Shown in pieces: positions 11,881 to 32,780 of a DNA stretch of 64,000 nt. Numbering within the stretch: the stretch's first letter is position 1; the number at the start of each line of letters is the position of its first letter. The stretch is from the sequence record KC690136, one strand, 5' to 3'. The notes beneath the pieces were generated by a model, which was given only the letters and a program-made list of their open reading frames with translations, did not search any database and was not told the DNA's origin. The translations under genes and the position numbers were made by a program. The stretch comes from Escherichia phage JES2013.

Positions 11881-12792
11881 TTATTTCCCGTTAACTTTGT
11901 TGTAGTTTCCCTGCTCAGAGGGGACTATGGTAGAAGGTCTTCCATATTCCTGATAATACCAATCCGCAGCCGATTGGGTAACACCGTTTTCATCTGTCCA
12001 CATCATAGATTTGTATGGCTGCCACTCCTCTGCAGCGTTTGTGGATGCAGTGTCTGCGAATGCTCCTGTGTCCCTCTTGTTACCTACGTTACTACCATTC
12101 TTACAGTCGTTGACAGCACCTTTTTGCTGGGTTTTGCCTACTTTCTTAGGATTGCTGTATACAGTTGCATTAACAACCTTATTCAAGTAGAATGTGCGGA
12201 ACTCTGTAAGTTCTACATCAAACACCATTGCAGCGCCTTCACCAACAGACTTGTTGGCAGAAAGACTGGTTATGATGTAGTTCTCAAGAAGTCTCTCCTC
12301 GGTAACCAAAGAAACCAACTGTCGTTTATTGATAATCTCAGTCAAAGCCTCCAATGCAGCGCCTGGTCGCATAGATGCTGCAGGGTTTTTAGAGTCAGTA
12401 TTCCTATCGATGTAGTTTTGCTCATAGATTATGTGTGGGGACGTATTTACCCTACCAGTAAAAGAAAATACACCATCTTTAATTACAGCGTGGTCTGACA
12501 GGGTAGATTTATCTTCCACCGCAAACCCAGTCTTATCAACAGAATGTTTGAAAGAGTAATTCTCAACCTGATCGAAGATAATGGCAAGATCGTTAGTAAA
12601 GTTTTTACCCTTCATCTCCGTATTGCGACCGCCATAGTTAAGACCGCTGACAAACATAGTGTACTTTACATCGCTTTCAGTTTGCTGCTCTGCCTTTTCA
12701 GCCTTTGGAGATTTAACCTCTTGAGGCTTGTACAGGTCTTTTTCATCAACTATATTGCTTGGCATAACCTCTCCAGGACACTCCGATACCAT
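11881..12792 (-). CDS. hypothetical tail protein (distal tail/baseplate)
   Basis: 303-aa ORF immediately downstream of tape measure gene. Confidence 0.45.
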   Translation of the reverse strand: MVSECPGEVMPSNIVDEKDLYKPQEVKSPKAEKAEQQTESDVKYTMFVSGLNYGGRNTEMKGKNFTNDLAIIFDQVENYSFKHSVDKTGFAVEDKSTLSDHAVIKDGVFSFTGRVNTSPHIIYEQNYIDRNTDSKNPAASMRPGAALEALTEIINKRQLVSLVTEERLLENYIITSLSANKSVGEGAAMVFDVELTEFRTFYLNKVVNATVYSNPKKVGKTQQKGAVNDCKNGSNVGNKRDTGAFADTASTNAAEEWQPYKSMMWTDENGVTQSAADWYYQEYGRPSTIVPSEQGNYNKVNGK

Positions 12793-12870: not shown

Positions 12871-15207
12871 TTACCAAAGGTCGGTAGACATGAAGTTGAT
12901 ATCTTTATTGTTCTCCCACTCAAGTTTTGCATCAAATATTTTGTTAAACTCACCCTCATCTATTGAAATCGTGATTTTACCATCACTGATCTCTAAAGGC
13001 AGCATTTCCATAGTTCTTAATTGAGAAGCAAAACCAGGGCCACCTGGCAACGGGAGAGTCCCGCCCGGTAAGGTGTCCAAAGGATTGACAAACCCGTTAC
13101 CTCCCGATATGATATCTTTGCGAATCATATCGCTGATAGTATCCAGCTGCTGATTTCTTTCACTCAGTGGGTTGAAACGGTCATTAAATAATTCCCCGGC
13201 GCTTAATATTGTACCAATAATACCCAGCTTACCGAGCAGACCAACTTTGCCACCAGGTGTCTTGAGGCCACCTCCTCCTTTTCCTGCCGGAGCACCACCA
13301 CCAGATCCTTTTGTAGTAGCGGCACCTGCTGCTCCAGCCGCACCCCTCAGAGAGCTAAGGAATTTAAAGGTTTTTACAAGCATGGATGCCATGACAAAAC
13401 CTTTTGTTAGGGCGTTCACTACCAGCATGATGGCAGCAGCAAACCCTGCCCATTTAGCATAGCTAAAGGTGTCATGAAGCTCTTCAGAATATTCCTTCGT
13501 CTTGGCTGTTATGAATCCCCATTTAATTCCCCATTCAAGGAAAAACATGCGGATCTTAACTATAGTGTTGTTTAGTTCACCAACTACCCAGTTAAGACCT
13601 CTCACAAACCCGCTAACAAAATCACCAGAGGCATCCCACACAAATTGTAGAGTCTCACCAGTGCGGATCAGTGTATAATAGAACTCTGTTAGTTCGTCAG
13701 ACCAACGGGTGAACAGTTTCTGACGAGTCAGTTCGATGAAGGTTTTCAGTCTGTTTTCTGCCAGCACGTTAGACTTCTGCATTCTTTCATAACCAGCTGC
13801 AGATGCCTCGTTCATGTACTTAGCCACATACTTCATGATCTTGGCTGTTTTAACCTCACCTTTCTTCATCATGTCCATAAACTGATCCATGGAGAGTTCA
13901 GAAAGACCAAAAGCCTCTTTGGTAGCCTTGATAAAAGGTTCGTATGCACCAGGTAATGCTTCAGCAAGTTGTTGCTTCAGTTCTTCGGACATTACTTGCC
14001 CTTTACCGAGCATCTGTTGGATTGCCATAATACCGCGCTGGTATTTTACCTCATCAGCACCATAAGCAGCAGCATACTGGGAGTATGCAGAAAACAGCTC
14101 ATGCACTTCCTGATTTGTCATCTGGTTTTTGGCGTTTACCGACATCTGGGCGTAACCTTGAAGACCAGATTTGAGATCAAAACCAAGACGCATAGCCTCT
14201 TGCTGGACAAACGCAACCTCACTGTTGGCTTTGTTTGGATCTCCAGTAACAGCAGTAAGAGCAGCACTTGCCCCCTCCATCATGTGACCGGATCTGTTAA
14301 CCGCAGCAAATCCAGAAAAAGCTGTATACGCAGCTGTTGCATTAATAACAGATCTACGTAAGTCTCTCATGGCATCGCCTAGTGTAAGCGTTTGGCTGGT
14401 GGCACTTTTAAATCCAGACTGCAGCGCTGACAGGTGGGCGTTAAAGGTTGACTTTTTCATCTCCCCGCGAGCAAACCTAGACTCTAACTCTGAGTATCCT
14501 GGCAAGCTTCCACGGAATCCGGCCCCATACTTGGCAGAAAGTCTTATCGCGGAGTTGTAGAGGTGGGTTCTCCTTGCCTCACGATCCGACATAAGCCTGT
14601 TATCCATACCAGCTTTACTGTCTCTTCTTAGCTGTCTATGATAACGATTCATAGCGGCTGTCTGAGCTTTCACAAGGTTAGGGTCGGAAGCCACACCACC
14701 CATATTAGGGTTACCGGGGATATATTTGAAAGATTTGGCATTAGCCAAAACTCTTGCCTTAGGTGCCTTATAACCACCGTAAGATACTGGTGCAGATTTG
14801 GCAGCCTTTTTGGCCTCTTTAGCTTGCTGCTGGTAGAACTTACGCATCCTAGCCATTTCTGGATTTTTAGCGGTAAGATTACCTACAGCTTGTTTACGTC
14901 TCGCATTCTCCCTACGTTCTATTGCAGCCCTTACTGCAGCCTCTTTCTTGGCCTGTGCTACGCTCTCTCTGTGCAGTTTAGCATTTGCCTGAGACTGCTG
15001 TCTGGCAACCCTCTGCATTGTCTGCTGGGTTTTAACAGCTACCGCCTGCCATCTACTCATGGGGTTGGCTGAGTTAAAATCCTCGCCCAGTTTCCTGAAC
15101 TCCCTCCCAATACTGCGAATTTTCTCTACAGCTTTTTTGTAGGAGGAGTTCTCTATCTCAAAGCCAATCTTGTTGACTGTTGTGGCAACTATTTTGTTTG
15201 TAGCCAT
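12871..15207 (-). CDS. tail tape measure protein
   Basis: 778 aa; Ala/Gln/Lys-rich helical composition, Gly-rich segment, position directly after chaperone ORF pair. Confidence 0.7.
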   Translation of the reverse strand: MATNKIVATTVNKIGFEIENSSYKKAVEKIRSIGREFRKLGEDFNSANPMSRWQAVAVKTQQTMQRVARQQSQANAKLHRESVAQAKKEAAVRAAIERRENARRKQAVGNLTAKNPEMARMRKFYQQQAKEAKKAAKSAPVSYGGYKAPKARVLANAKSFKYIPGNPNMGGVASDPNLVKAQTAAMNRYHRQLRRDSKAGMDNRLMSDREARRTHLYNSAIRLSAKYGAGFRGSLPGYSELESRFARGEMKKSTFNAHLSALQSGFKSATSQTLTLGDAMRDLRRSVINATAAYTAFSGFAAVNRSGHMMEGASAALTAVTGDPNKANSEVAFVQQEAMRLGFDLKSGLQGYAQMSVNAKNQMTNQEVHELFSAYSQYAAAYGADEVKYQRGIMAIQQMLGKGQVMSEELKQQLAEALPGAYEPFIKATKEAFGLSELSMDQFMDMMKKGEVKTAKIMKYVAKYMNEASAAGYERMQKSNVLAENRLKTFIELTRQKLFTRWSDELTEFYYTLIRTGETLQFVWDASGDFVSGFVRGLNWVVGELNNTIVKIRMFFLEWGIKWGFITAKTKEYSEELHDTFSYAKWAGFAAAIMLVVNALTKGFVMASMLVKTFKFLSSLRGAAGAAGAATTKGSGGGAPAGKGGGGLKTPGGKVGLLGKLGIIGTILSAGELFNDRFNPLSERNQQLDTISDMIRKDIISGGNGFVNPLDTLPGGTLPLPGGPGFASQLRTMEMLPLEISDGKITISIDEGEFNKIFDAKLEWENNKDINFMSTDLW

Positions 15208-19084: not shown

Positions 19085-19555
19085 TTACTGTCCGATTTTA
19101 AAGGTTGCAGATTCAAGCAGCACATCGTAATGCCGCATAGCCTCGTTGAAGCCTTTCTCTTGTGCCCACTGCTCGCTAACAGTAGGATTACTAAACTGCC
19201 CAGCCTCAATAACAAACTGGATAGCTTTGGCCCCTGTGTCCCCCATCTGCTTAAGAATAGCCTCTGCACTTGATCCCCTAGCCATAGCTCTCAACAATTT
19301 TTCTGTCAAGGTCTGTAGTTGAGTGCTGTGAAATGCAAAAGCTGTCTCCATGAAATTGCGAACAGGCAGCCCGTTCCAACCGAAGTTGTGAATGGCTGCC
19401 AATGTTGCCATATTTAAGCCTGACGGGTGAGGTTCGTCATAAAAGCCGTAGGTTATTGTTTTACTTTCAAGTCTCACAAGTTCTTTGTAGAAGCGATCTA
19501 AACGCTTTAGGTTGAAACTTGTTTGACATTTAACCTTTAGCATTATATTCCTCAC
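19085..19555 (-). CDS. hypothetical head-tail connector region protein
   Basis: 156-aa ORF. Confidence 0.4.
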   Translation of the reverse strand: MRNIMLKVKCQTSFNLKRLDRFYKELVRLESKTITYGFYDEPHPSGLNMATLAAIHNFGWNGLPVRNFMETAFAFHSTQLQTLTEKLLRAMARGSSAEAILKQMGDTGAKAIQFVIEAGQFSNPTVSEQWAQEKGFNEAMRHYDVLLESATFKIGQ

Positions 19556-29325: not shown

Positions 29326-29402
29326 TGGTCTCCACGGAGTGATTCGAACACTCGACCTCCTGATCCCAAATCAGGCGCTCTACCAAGCTGAGCTACGCGG
29401 AG
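29326..29402 (-). tRNA. tRNA-Pro (anticodon UGG)
   Basis: Manual cloverleaf: acceptor CTCCGCG/CGTGGAG, D-arm GCTC/GAGC, anticodon loop TTTGGGA, T-arm GAGTG TTCGAAT CACTC, encoded CCA. Confidence 0.7.
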
Positions 29403-29413
29403 TATTCATTATT

Positions 29414-29488
29414 TGGTGGCCCTGGGTGGAATTGAACCACCGTCTGGCGATTATGAGTCGCTTGCTTGAACCTTCCAGCTACAGGGCC
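29414..29488 (-). tRNA. tRNA-Met (anticodon CAU; could be initiator, elongator or Ile2)
   Basis: Manual fold: acceptor GGCCCTG/CAGGGCC, anticodon loop CTCATAA, T-arm GGTGG TTCAATT CCACC, encoded CCA. Confidence 0.65.
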
Positions 29489-29489
29489 A

Positions 29490-29565
29490 TGGTGCTGATG
29501 GCAGGACTTGAACCTGCAACCTATTGATTACAAATCAATTGCACTACCAATTGTGCTACATCAGC
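29490..29565 (-). tRNA. tRNA-Thr (anticodon UGU)
   Basis: Manual fold: acceptor GCTGATG/CATCAGC, D-arm GCAC/GTGC, anticodon loop TTTGTAA, T-arm GCAGG TTCAAGT CCTGC, encoded CCA. Confidence 0.65.
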
Positions 29566-29570
29566 AAAAA

Positions 29571-29661
29571 GGTGCTAGGTGATGGAGTCGAACCACCCGA
29601 ATCGCAATGATAACAGATTTACAGTCTGCCCCGCTACCCCTACGGAATTAACTCACCTAAA
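29571..29661 (-). tRNA. tRNA-Tyr-like (anticodon GUA), atypical 5' half; 5' boundary uncertain
   Basis: Anticodon arm GCAGA CTGTAAA TCTGT identical in core to bacterial tRNA-Tyr; canonical T-arm GGTGG TTCGACT CCATC; long variable region; acceptor/D-arm pairing not resolved by hand. Confidence 0.45.
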
Positions 29662-29787
29662 TACTAATATTTAAATTCTTTTTAAAATAGCTAGTGTTCT
29701 CACCACTAACTATGAGGTATCGGTAAAGTGGTTACCGCCACTTGCCGAAGATTTACTCTGCTAAAGTAAGCTACATTAAAAAGAACT

Positions 29788-29862
29788 TGGCACCCCGTAC
29801 TGGACTCGAACCAGTGTCAACGGCTTAGAAGGCCGCTGCTTTATCCACTAAGCTAACAGGGC
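29788..29862 (-). tRNA. tRNA-Arg (anticodon UCU)
   Basis: Manual fold: acceptor GCCCTGT/ACGGGGT with G-U pairs, anticodon loop CTTCTAA, T-arm ACTGG TTCGAGT CCAGT, encoded CCA. Confidence 0.65.
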
Positions 29863-30964: not shown

Positions 30965-31174
30965 TCAACAGATTCCGGCCTTATCTCGCCTGTCTGCGTA
31001 TTCTTTAATCGCAACCTCATCTGCATTAGTGACCAGGTCTTCAAAGTAACTCTCAAGCTCCTCGTCAATGTCAGGAGACCAGCTCTTTTTCCTGTCAGTG
31101 TGAATTGCAGACTTGTTGAACTTATTACAGTTCTTTGCTACCGGGTTATTCATTAAGCGCTCCTCAGCGTTCAT
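30965..31174 (-). CDS. hypothetical protein
   Basis: 69-aa ORF overlapping upstream gene end. Confidence 0.35.
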   Translation of the reverse strand: MNAEERLMNNPVAKNCNKFNKSAIHTDRKKSWSPDIDEELESYFEDLVTNADEVAIKEYADRRDKAGIC

Positions 31175-31742
31175 AGTAAATTTTATTTAACATTACCTCA
31201 TCCTTTGCAGAAAGAATACCGAGATATGCATCACCGAATCTACCTGCAACAACCTCTGCATGATACATTACTTCGTTAATATCGTCAAGAGTGATAACTG
31301 GATGACCGTATCTCTCTGAGTATTGTCTCAGAGTGCGATGTAGAGAGTCATCATCATAGGCAGACTTTTTAATATCACAAACACGACGAATAGCCTTGAT
31401 GTCGAAAAACCCTGTACGATACCAACCAAGAAAAAGGTTTCGTGCAGTGTCAACATCTACATCAATACCATCAAGAACCTTATCTACAAGATAGCTATCA
31501 TCCTTTGGACTCGCTTCCTTAGTGCGGATATAGTTGCCATCTTTTCCAGGTGACAGCTCCTTCTCATCACCAGCCTTCATGTCATCATTTGGCGGGGTTA
31601 GCCACTTATCCGGATGCTTACGATCACGAGCGTTAGAATGATTACGCTGGAAACCTGGCTGCCACTTGAAAGTTTTCTCCATCTGTTCTTCATTCTGATA
31701 ACGTTTTGCAATCTTTTCACGGTCATCTTTGCGTGAACTCAT
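31164..31742 (-). CDS. hypothetical protein
   Basis: 192-aa ORF with GAGGAGG RBS upstream of ATG. Confidence 0.5.
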   Translation of the reverse strand: MSSRKDDREKIAKRYQNEEQMEKTFKWQPGFQRNHSNARDRKHPDKWLTPPNDDMKAGDEKELSPGKDGNYIRTKEASPKDDSYLVDKVLDGIDVDVDTARNLFLGWYRTGFFDIKAIRRVCDIKKSAYDDDSLHRTLRQYSERYGHPVITLDDINEVMYHAEVVAGRFGDAYLGILSAKDEVMLNKIYYER

Positions 31743-32246
31743 AGCTGCCTCCTCTTCAAGTTATAGAAAAACTCACTGTATCGCTTTGTAACGAGCTTTT
31801 CTATCAAACTGGTGCGATTGCATTACTTGGTATGGTTTATATAGCTGTGGAGCGATTTAGGGTCCTTCTTGTCCGTTTCCACACATAAACTTTATCCAAA
31901 CTCGCGCGGGAGGCTCTCAACCGACTCCTTACGGCGCTGGCAAGCTTTCGTCGGTGGCCCACATTAGTGCTCGGCCTTTGGCCTGCGCTATCGCTTCGCT
32001 CCCACACATGTTAACAGACCTGCATGTATGCACTTCTGTTATTGTGTGCACTATGGAGGCCCGGCATCTCGCCCCTCGTAGGCGAGTGCCAATGAAGGGC
32101 CGACACTACCCATAGTAAGTAATAAATTTAAAACATGGTACTTAGGATCTAATATATTCTACATAAGTTAAGTATATGTACTTTAGTACCATAAGTACTA
32201 GATCTTTTATTTTTTATTATTCAGTTATTTTAGTTATATTCTTTAT

Positions 32247-32311
32247 GTGTCCGTATCACGGACAGTTAGTGTCCGTATTACGGGCAGTAGTGTCCGTATC
32301 ACGGACAGTTA
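32247..32311. repeat. three tandem copies of a palindromic ~16-bp site (GTCCGTATCACGGAC) at 22-bp spacing; iteron/operator-like array
   Basis: Copies at ~32249-32265, 32271-32287 (variant GTCCGTATTACGGGC), 32293-32309; preceded by AT-rich tract 32111-32245. Confidence 0.6.
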
Positions 32312-32382
32312 GTGGACTCTGTTCCAGAGCGAACATAAAACATACGAATCCTTATAGTACAGATATTTAAGTTTTTACTGGT

Positions 32383-32733
32383 CTAACCAGTTGTTGACAT
32401 CCGAATAACCTCTTCTGGTGGCAAAACTTTGGAAAATGTGCATCTTTTACCTCTCCCTTGTGTGGATGTTTCAACCACCCCCGCACACTCTAAAGTTTTA
32501 ACGCACGCTGCTGCTTTTGTTTTCTTTATCCCAACATCTGCTGCAATTTTCCTTGTGCTTGGTGTGAAGCGTGAATTTCCTCCAAGCTTATACCAGTTGT
32601 GCAGGTAGCAGTATACAATCTTGTCATACAAGTCAAGAACAACAACCTCTCCAGTTGTGTCATTCAAAACTTTTGACATAGACAGTATTTCAAGGGGGAC
32701 TTTAAGATATAGCAGCTTATCCCCATCTTTCAT
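32383..32733 (-). CDS. putative helix-turn-helix DNA-binding protein
   Basis: 116 aa; segment STRKIAADVGIKKTKAAACVKTLECAGVVE resembles an HTH/winged-helix; adjacent to the palindromic repeat array. Confidence 0.4.
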   Translation of the reverse strand: MKDGDKLLYLKVPLEILSMSKVLNDTTGEVVVLDLYDKIVYCYLHNWYKLGGNSRFTPSTRKIAADVGIKKTKAAACVKTLECAGVVETSTQGRGKRCTFSKVLPPEEVIRMSTTG

Positions 32734-32780
32734 ATCTCCTGATTCTCCTTGTGTGGCAATTTTCTTTAAAATAGCAGGGA

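Follow-up and report, generated by a model that had tools for sequence, protein, structure and literature searches.

A covarying, non-coding element beside a putative replication origin is common to rV5-like phages and small capsid-encoding plasmids of Escherichia coli

We analyzed 64,000 nucleotides (nt) of Escherichia phage JES2013 (KC690136; hereafter the window), a Vequintavirus, i.e. an rV5-like myovirus with E. coli as its host. We focused on a GC-rich island at 31860-32110 that a preliminary description, made from the sequence alone, had put forward as a structured noncoding RNA. Comparison with related sequences revealed that the island is a non-coding, structured, and presumably functional element, whose stems are kept by compensatory changes and which is conserved like the flanking genes and encodes no conserved protein. 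In phages and plasmids alike, it is the constant, initiator-independent neighbor of exchangeable initiator/iteron modules. It lies just downstream of the iterons in three initiator/iteron contexts: in the window, in two divergent phage lineages (L004 and L014), and in a family of E. coli plasmids.

The copies that we compared came from three sources. The stretch is present at 90% identity or more in 117 Vequintavirus phage records, and over 31750-32200 the window matches E. coli O157 typing phage 4 without a difference (100% identity). The gene downstream of the island, which was predicted to encode a 192-amino-acid (aa) protein (31164..31742, minus strand; rV5 ORF 77, PHROG 12226) and whose distribution is limited to Vequintavirus and two divergent lineages, led us to these lineages, L004 (from IMG/VR) and L014 (from Logan). 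Finally, we searched E. coli genomes and plasmids by BLAST; small circular plasmids contain two pieces of the island, and there was no chromosomal E. coli match. Both pieces, which we call hairpin A (32058-32101) and the core (31901-32008), are present in NZ_CP020521.1, and the other plasmids found by BLAST contain the core only.

In L004 and L014, homology to the window ends at 32771 and restarts at 32104, where hairpin A begins. Initiator gene, iterons, and the AT-rich spacer between iterons and island have all been exchanged: the L004 initiator is 28% identical to its counterpart in the window and matches PHROG 8102, and a different repeat set occupies the position of the iterons. The island is conserved on a par with the coding flanks. 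Identity to L004 and L014 is 96% for hairpin A, 86-92% for the core, and 68-72% for the intervening hairpin 2, the least conserved part.

To describe the helices, we give all positions on the minus strand, 5′ arm first. The preliminary description had noted a nested minus-sense stem, GGCCC...CUCGCC UACGAGG GGCGAG...GGGCC, which we located at 32058-32101. This is hairpin A, with an outer stem GGCCC/GGGCC (32097-32101 with 32058-32062), an inner 10-base pair (bp) stem GGCACUCGCC/GGCGAG(A)UGCC that contains a bulged A (32081-32090 with 32063-32073), and a 7-nt loop, UACGAGG (32074-32080). Its 15 pairs are 100% paired across nine distinct sequences. In plasmid NZ_CP020521.1, two of these pairs are changed on both sides (G-C to U-A twice), and the remaining substitutions and all 1-nt insertions or deletions (indels) are confined to loops.

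The 108-nt core starts with the linker UGUGUGGG (32001-32008) and a variable region, P2, that consists of GCGAAGC/GCGAUAGC (31987-31999) and GGCC-AAA-GGCC (31973-31983). Two further helices follow, P4 (GGGC/GCCU; 31957-31960 with 31911-31914), which is 90% paired, and P3 (ACCGAC/GUCGGU; 31950-31955 with 31920-31925), which presents a 24-nt apical loop (GAAAGCUUGCCAGCGCCGUAAGGA; 31926-31949). The sequence of P3 differs between phages (ACCGAC/GUCGGU) and plasmids (GCUGCC/GGCAGC), yet pairing is 100% across 16 distinct sequences; both sides are changed in three of the six pairs, and L004 and L014 contain G-U intermediates. All stem substitutions between phage and plasmid copies, in three pairs of P3 and two of hairpin A, are compensated. 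When partner columns were slid by one to three positions as a control, P3 pairing dropped to 29-51%, and pairing over all tested helices was 17-56%. The 24-nt loop, GAAAGCUUGCCAGCGCCG(U/G)AAGGA, is invariant bar one position, which keeps a GNRA-like GUAA or GGAA.

The 3′ segment of the core, CCCGCGCG (31903-31910), can close the element in two ways. In the alternative closing helix P1′ (31879..31910), which was chosen by RNAalifold and extended there with further G-U pairs, CCGCGCG (31903-31909) pairs with UGUGUGG (31879-31885) and encloses a short AU-rich hairpin. P1′ is 98.6% paired, with a compensatory C-G to G-C change in L014 and a G-U to G-C change in L004, and two of the six pairs counted are invariant G-U pairs. 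In the single-sequence minimum free energy (MFE) fold of the isolated core, CCCGCGCG instead pairs with the upstream linker UGUGUGGG (32001-32008) to close the core (P1). MAFFT left the phage and plasmid UGUGUGGG linkers out of register, and P1 is without variation. The two pairings compete for CCCGCGCG. Since the G-rich linkers can pair with either CACACA or CCCGCGCG, a conformational switch that uses these alternative pairings is possible.

Between hairpin A and the core lies hairpin 2 (32003..32048), a variable domain with an outer stem CACACA/UGUGUG (32043-32048 with 32003-32008) and an inner stem UAACAGA/UCUGUUA (32035-32041 with 32012-32018). One inner pair is A-U in the window, C-G in L004 and U-A in L014; it is broken in four of 12 sequences. 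In rV5, MaxTheCat, and Pr121LW, a deletion of 18 nt (32028-32045) removes the inner 5′ arm and retains the outer CACACA/UGUGUG stem. Two other candidate pairings were dropped. The 3′ arm of an outer stem seen in the single-sequence MFE fold (CUAUGGG/UCCAUAG) varies freely among phages and changes in its 5′ arm are uncompensated, and a 14-nt inverted repeat flanking the island (I6) is absent from L004 and L014.

When we built a covariance model of the core from the phage and plasmid sequences, it found exactly one copy in the 64-kb window (137 bits). L004 and L014, together with four plasmid loci, scored 109-124 bits, and nothing else was convincing. Pattern scans of IMG/VR returned the L004 contig only, together with chance matches (L005 and L151), and a scan of a genome collection with CGACGAAAGCTTGCCAGCGCC gave only chance matches (Bradyrhizobium and a metagenome-assembled genome). 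Among the metagenome matches listed for the pattern GGCCGAGCAC N8-24 CGACGAAAGC, L088 was the only true near-identical homolog, and the rest were almost all chance matches in GC-rich soil contigs. We consider the covariation evidence from these alignments good, short of statistical rigor. The check for covariation in relatives that the preliminary description had proposed thus brought out compensated pairs in P3 (three), hairpin A (two), P1′ (one), and hairpin 2 (one).

As had been described, the island is markedly GC-rich. The G+C fraction is 0.59 in 31900-32099 and 0.52 in 31800-31999 (200-nt intervals), compared to 0.36-0.47 in most neighboring intervals and about 41% surrounding the island; it falls to 0.305 in 32100-32299, the lowest of the 8 kb profiled. 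The list of open reading frames (ORFs) also bears out the absence of any ORF of 60 aa or more over 31860-32110. The statement that the longest peptides are about 20 aa was wrong, because ORFs of 56 aa (31837-32007, minus strand) and 53 aa (31954-32115, plus strand) overlap the island; the mechanical ORFs are of 56, 53, 40, 32, and 31 aa.

The 56-aa ORF, named "ORF 78" in some GenBank records, raises the alternative that the island encodes a small protein. It is open in most Vequintavirus genomes and annotated in several records, and two indels inside it have lengths divisible by three; the loop of hairpin A has indels of a single base. The frame is not conserved. Phage B9-1 has a stop at codon 3, and early stops in L004 (codon 41) and L014 (codon 39) leave 40 and 38 residues. 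Further, differences among relatives are mostly non-synonymous, neither the 56-aa nor the 53-aa frame has a Pfam or PHROG match, and plasmid copies lack an equivalent start codon. The product would be arginine-rich, as expected from reading GC-rich non-coding sequence. We therefore regard a protein as scarcely credible. A peptide starting at a UUG behind a Shine-Dalgarno-like AAGGAG was also rejected, since the UUG is UUA in L014 and the plasmids have no start codon.

The genes around the island are all on the minus strand, and the element shares their orientation. In 5′ to 3′ order, this strand carries a winged-helix gene, the iterons, the AT-rich spacer, the island, a 12-bp hairpin, and the 192-aa gene. 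An island upstream of a gene on the same strand could be a long structured 5′ leader that regulates the 192-aa gene in cis, like a riboswitch or attenuator. The strongly conserved hairpin at the ribosome-binding site and the joint presence of island and gene in all phage lineages found fit such a role. However, the plasmids contain the element and no homolog of the 192-aa gene, and there the element is upstream of promoters. Conversely, L013 has a homolog of the gene (51% identical) preceded by a 60-nt gap and no element. As we also found no terminator/anti-terminator pair and no riboswitch match, we consider a leader quite improbable.

The 12-bp hairpin itself (AUAGAAAAGCUC/GAGUUUUUCUAU; 31763..31804, minus strand; inverted repeat I7) has a conserved 18-nt loop and sits downstream of the island, just 5′ of the Shine-Dalgarno sequence of the 192-aa gene. 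Positions 31760-31809, at 98% (L004) and 94% (L014) identity, are the best-conserved intergenic stretch, and the hairpin has one G-U pair that forms only on the minus strand. It may be separate from the island and may serve as a translational operator or a site of processing. Four tRNA genes (Pro-UGG, Met-CAU, Thr-UGU, and Arg-UCU; 29326-29862, minus strand) are clustered about 2 kb downstream of the island, and L004 has further tRNA-like matches in the equivalent region.

Upstream of the island are the features of an iteron-type origin, namely at least three direct repeats next to a winged-helix initiator gene and an adjacent AT-rich region. The gene (32383..32733, minus strand) encodes a 116-aa winged-helix protein that is likely an origin-binding initiator: it matches PHROG 12838, "replication initiation protein" (5e-80), and its matches to the Pfam families HTH_36 (2e-5) and DUF6945 (4e-6) are just below the cut-offs. 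The three 21-22-bp iterons (GTGTCCGTATCACGGACAGTTAGTG; repeat family D1), each palindromic, are at 32247..32314, 69 bp from the end of this gene, and some GenBank records have a repeat_region here. The 136-bp spacer (32111..32246; about 30% G+C) is, by composition and sequence, a candidate DNA-unwinding region. From these features, the iteron region is likely the replication origin of this rV5-like phage. Our literature searches found no description of the element, of an rV5 origin, or of Vequintavirus satellites.

Two GATC sites are also present in the spacer, along with four or five RGTAC repeats that form an imperfect 25-nt inverted repeat (I2); these repeats may be a second protein-binding array in the putative origin. 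We found no conserved DnaA boxes. The sole near-consensus box, TTATCCAAA (31892-31900, plus strand), is altered in about half of the phage genomes, and a DnaA-box reading of TTATCCAAA and of CCCACACA was rejected because they are not conserved. Downstream of the island, a phage 16-mer, GUAAUGCAAUCGCACC (31811-31826, minus strand), equals the reverse complement of plasmid GGUGCAAUUGCAUUAC (L148:1385-1401, plus strand) at 15 of 16 positions. This shared, partly palindromic 16-mer, present in opposite orientations, is possibly a duplex protein-binding site.

We examined 13 loci of the plasmid family, which includes L149, L150 (the whole of NZ_CP020521.1), and L152-L162. The plasmids are circular and 13.2-14.3 kb in size; one 39.6-kb record equals three times 13.2 kb and contains the element three times. 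Their genes code for a major capsid protein, tape-measure and Dit-like proteins, and a Rep-like protein; there are also small ORFs, and one cluster of the capsid proteins has 441 member sequences. Three plasmid proteins resemble proteins from the tail region of the phage in the window: the Dit-like protein (50% identity; 12079-12702), a 152-aa protein (45%; 19115-19537), and the tape measure (25%; 13477-15195). No portal or terminase was found in the plasmid annotation or among the scanned plasmid proteins, searches of IMG/VR with the plasmid capsid and Rep proteins gave no match, and we found no paper on these plasmids. Overall, they have the look of satellites carried as plasmids, or else of miniature relatives of rV5-like phages.

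The plasmid copies of the element directly follow arrays of four or five iterons and precede the operon for the Rep-like protein, which is of the HTH_36 type. The element is embedded in a non-coding region of roughly 1 kb that is a mosaic of hairpin cassettes (A-F, core I, and core II), which vary in order and combination and are joined by the linker UGUGUGG(G) (L150:1000-1310; L149:1420-1620; homologous regions of L152-L162). GTGTGGG occurs 12 times in L150, compared to 1.2 expected, and is also found outside the mosaic and on both strands. In NZ_CP020521.1, a 12-nt direct repeat, TAGAATTGATTT (L148:964-975 and 1418-1429), brackets a block of roughly 440 nt that contains hairpin A, cassettes B and C, and the core, which hints at insertion or recombination of the whole block. 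Part of core II, GUCCGGAUAAG...AUCCGGAC, resembles an E. coli repetitive extragenic palindromic (REP) unit.

At the nucleotide level, non-coding similarity between plasmid and phage is limited to hairpin A and the core. One explanation is that these are sites read in duplex DNA, such as a pac site through which a phage terminase packages a satellite-like plasmid or an array recognized by a host protein through CCCACACA. The lack of a plasmid terminase or portal and the relatedness of some tail proteins to those of the phage are in keeping with packaging by a helper, and the cos site shared by satellite P4 and its helper P2 is an analogous case. Against a duplex site, changes that preserve pairing are not expected where DNA is read as a duplex, five of the 13 loci lack core I and most lack hairpin A, and the DnaA-box-like TTATCCAAA varies among phages. 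We judge such a site very improbable.

If the element is read as a folded single strand, the minus strand is favored as the functional strand, from three features of the alignment. First, the end pair of P3 in L004 and L014 is G-U on the minus strand and would be a broken A-C on the plus strand. Second, P1′ has its invariant G-U pairs. Third, the consensus fold is better on the minus strand (79 pairs, four compensated, covariation term +0.72) than on the plus strand (69 pairs, one compensated, +2.59), in agreement with the minus-sense structure first described. The 266-nt stretch is also more stable than dinucleotide shuffles, with z = −2.6 (minus) and −2.8 (plus) for RNA and z = −2.9 (minus) and −2.4 (plus) with DNA parameters. 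That the strand may be read as RNA is favored by G-U pairs in its helices, by C(UUCG)G loops in plasmid cassettes, and by GNRA-type loops.

Our leading explanation, which we put forward tentatively and hold to be slightly more doubtful than probable, is that the element is a new structured RNA situated beside the origin, which would arise when transcription of the initiator gene reads through, and would act in cis at the origin. In 31600-32500, we found neither a sigma-70-like promoter nor an intrinsic terminator on either strand, and the rV5 record has a promoter upstream of the gene for the winged-helix protein; together, these make read-through transcription of the island likely. With no terminator in between, transcription of the initiator gene would run on through iterons and AT-rich spacer into the island. 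The folded transcript would have three domains: hairpin A, the dispensable hairpin 2, and the 108-nt core that presents the 24-nt loop on P3. The UGUGUGGG linkers may permit alternative pairings. The transcript could act in cis as an origin-activating or primer-type transcript; alternatively, it could be a platform that binds a host or phage replication factor via the 24-nt loop.

Several observations weigh against this explanation or against the evidence on which it draws. No promoter or terminator bounds a discrete RNA. In the plasmids, the rep operon has its strong sigma-70 promoters downstream of the element, no convincing sense promoter precedes the element, and terminator-like hairpins are found on the opposite strand just 5′ of it. 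In L155-L159, core II replaces core I; with this replacement in five of 13 loci and the partial loss of hairpin 2 in three phages, none of the cassettes is indispensable by itself. Several phages have A-C at the P4 pair R59-Y104. The covariation counts are few and partly inherited, since the effective diversity is only about four independent lineages, and the folding z-scores fail to discriminate between the strands or between RNA and DNA. Lastly, skew analysis in the rV5 genome paper did not place the origin (PMC3606486). Of the structured noncoding RNA first proposed, then, the non-coding nature, the conservation, and the selection on pairing (compensatory changes in three helices) stand; a discrete, stable RNA is left without a promoter, a terminator, or an Rfam match. 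Likewise, the position that was given for the island, between the iteron array and the promoter region of 31164..31742, holds for the iterons, and the promoter region is not evident, because 31600-32500 has no sigma-70-like promoter.

The same strand could also act as single-stranded DNA. Once the initiator has melted the AT-rich spacer, the adjacent minus strand, which is the lagging-strand template for a fork that leaves the spacer toward lower coordinates, would fold, exclude single-stranded DNA-binding protein, and be a signal for loading primase or a primosome/helicase. Stable hairpins are indeed present on this strand beside the origin, with a DNA fold of z = −2.9, and in phage and plasmids the island adjoins the iterons and the 30%-GC spacer. 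Its retention when initiators and iterons are swapped is what one would expect of a signal for a common replisome. Directly 5′ of hairpin A or the core is GTGTC (32102-32106, minus strand; also in NZ_CP020521.1). At the same place are GGGTC, in L004 (about 2632-2640), L014, plasmid core I, and cassette D, and TGGTC, in NZ_CP178698.1. These three are the main recognition sequences of the T7 gp4 primase. The rV5 genome encodes a podovirus-like primase/helicase (PMC3606486). Moreover, DNA mini-hairpin motifs, GCGNAGC and GCGNNAGC, have been reported at phage single-stranded DNA priming sites (PMC13037366). GCGAAGC and GCGAUAGC are at 31987-31999 of the phage, and core II (e.g. L155:12560-12860, minus strand) contains GUGC-GAA-GCAC or GUGC-GAUA-GCAC, which fit these mini-hairpin rules.

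Other features of the element fit DNA less well. The two invariant G-U pairs of P1′, a helix supported by covariation, would be weak G-T pairs in DNA, and P1′ is absent from the DNA MFE fold. UUCG and GNRA loops are hallmarks of RNA. The mini-hairpin motif is lost in L004, which has GCAAAGC instead of GCGAAGC, and it is absent from core I, where the plasmid sequence GCGAAUGC fits neither rule. As the plasmids persist without the phage, a site for a phage primase cannot be the whole story, and the primase-site reading draws on short motifs. A single-stranded DNA signal is the main rival of the origin-side RNA and, to our minds, rather unlikely.

In its mode of action, the element seems most like origin-proximal single-strand elements, whether single-strand initiation (ssi) signals or origin transcripts, and differs from both in size, modular build, and sequence. 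The ssi signals, such as G4 oric, the phiX174-type primosome assembly sites, and ssiA/ssiB of RSF1010, are likewise strand-specific clusters of stable hairpins, spanning 100-250 nt beside or within an origin. They also resemble the element in their independence from a specific initiator and resemble some of its copies in mini-hairpins of the GCGNAGC/GCGNNAGC type (PMC13037366). Their sequences are not similar to that of the element, which is larger and modular and whose invariant P1′ G-U pairs and plasmid UUCG loops fit RNA better.

Origin transcripts and primer RNAs include ColE1 RNA II and the transcripts of the transcription-activated origins of lambda, T7, and T4. The likeness would lie in a structured transcript across or next to an origin, with G-rich segments that could hybridize to a C-rich template, and the position of the element is compatible with read-through from the initiator gene. 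Unlike ColE1 RNA II, the element has no identified dedicated promoter, antisense RNA I-like partner, or RNase H site, and ColE1-type origins lack iterons and a Rep protein. A ColE1-type RNA II locus was rejected, as 31600-32500 has no sigma-70-like promoter on either strand.

Two other comparisons concern the modular build and the sharing between replicons. REP sequences and bacterial interspersed mosaic elements (BIMEs) of E. coli are also mosaics of palindromic units with short conserved linkers; the phage island has no REP-like sequence, and UGUGUGGG is not a BIME linker. In the cos sharing of P4 and P2, a small phage-related replicon and a large phage with similar tail genes have a short non-coding sequence in common. 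In our case, the shared pieces covary like folded single strands and are absent from part of the plasmid family, and a helper relation between phage and plasmid is putative.

No known RNA family accounts for the island. Rfam 15 found only four tRNAs at the gathering threshold in the whole window, and ARAGORN found the four tRNAs at 29326-29862 only; the island is neither a tRNA nor a tmRNA. At E values up to 10, 31700-32400 gave only sub-threshold chance matches, to rli43 (24 of 100 bits, mostly in the AT-rich spacer) and Bcj14 (15 of 59 bits). Rfam searches of the plasmid and divergent phage copies found nothing at the element, so the Infernal scan that had been suggested came out negative. 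A mimic of a CRISPR repeat was also rejected. GAGCCUCCCGCGCGAGUUUGGAUAAAGUU (31888-31916, minus strand) agrees at 19 of 29 positions with the type I-E repeat of E. coli, and contains CCCGCG without a CGCGGG partner. The plasmids lack its GGAUAAA part, there is no match to CRISPR direct repeats, and the resemblances to type I-E and I-F repeats form no hairpin and are not common to phage and plasmid.

A further possibility is that the element acts in trans, as a decoy RNA that sequesters a host factor or defense protein in conflicts between phage, satellite, and host, and lies near iterons merely because this is non-coding space. The plasmid mosaic of interchangeable cassettes with two alternative cores is typical of fast-exchanging accessory functions, and the excess of GTGTGGG in the plasmid would fit such a role. 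There is also a precedent in pseudo-ToxI, a counter-defense noncoding RNA of the rV5-like phage PhiTE (PMC3475682), a phage of the same subfamily. That locus is a tandem 36-nt repeat that mimics an antitoxin (PMC3475682); the island contains no tandem repeat, resembles neither ToxI nor any Rfam family, and lacks a toxin context. Since we identified no partner gene, target, or processing signal, and since the position next to iterons recurs in three contexts, we consider a decoy improbable.

Taking the phage and plasmid copies together, we also considered a broader reading, in which the element belongs to a new class of cassette-built RNA. Its modules would be set on the linker UGUGUGGG and closed by CCCGCGCG or CACACA, and would be a common handle of lytic rV5-like phages and widespread, capsid-encoding 13.5-kb plasmid satellites to the replication (or packaging) machinery, independent of their private initiator/iteron pairs. 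We regard this as speculative and unlikely, and offer it with less confidence than the origin-side RNA described above.

Because rV5-like phages are widely used for typing and biocontrol, the locus matters as a concrete candidate for their origin, with an initiator gene, iterons, an AT-rich spacer, and a constant structured element. The element also ties these lytic phages to common, apparently undescribed capsid-encoding plasmids of E. coli. This link suggests either a helper/satellite relationship or common ancestry, and phage and plasmid could make molecular contact through the non-coding module that they share. Acting as RNA, the element would found a new origin-associated RNA family; acting as single-stranded DNA, it would add a large lytic myovirus to the replicons with ssi-type priming signals.

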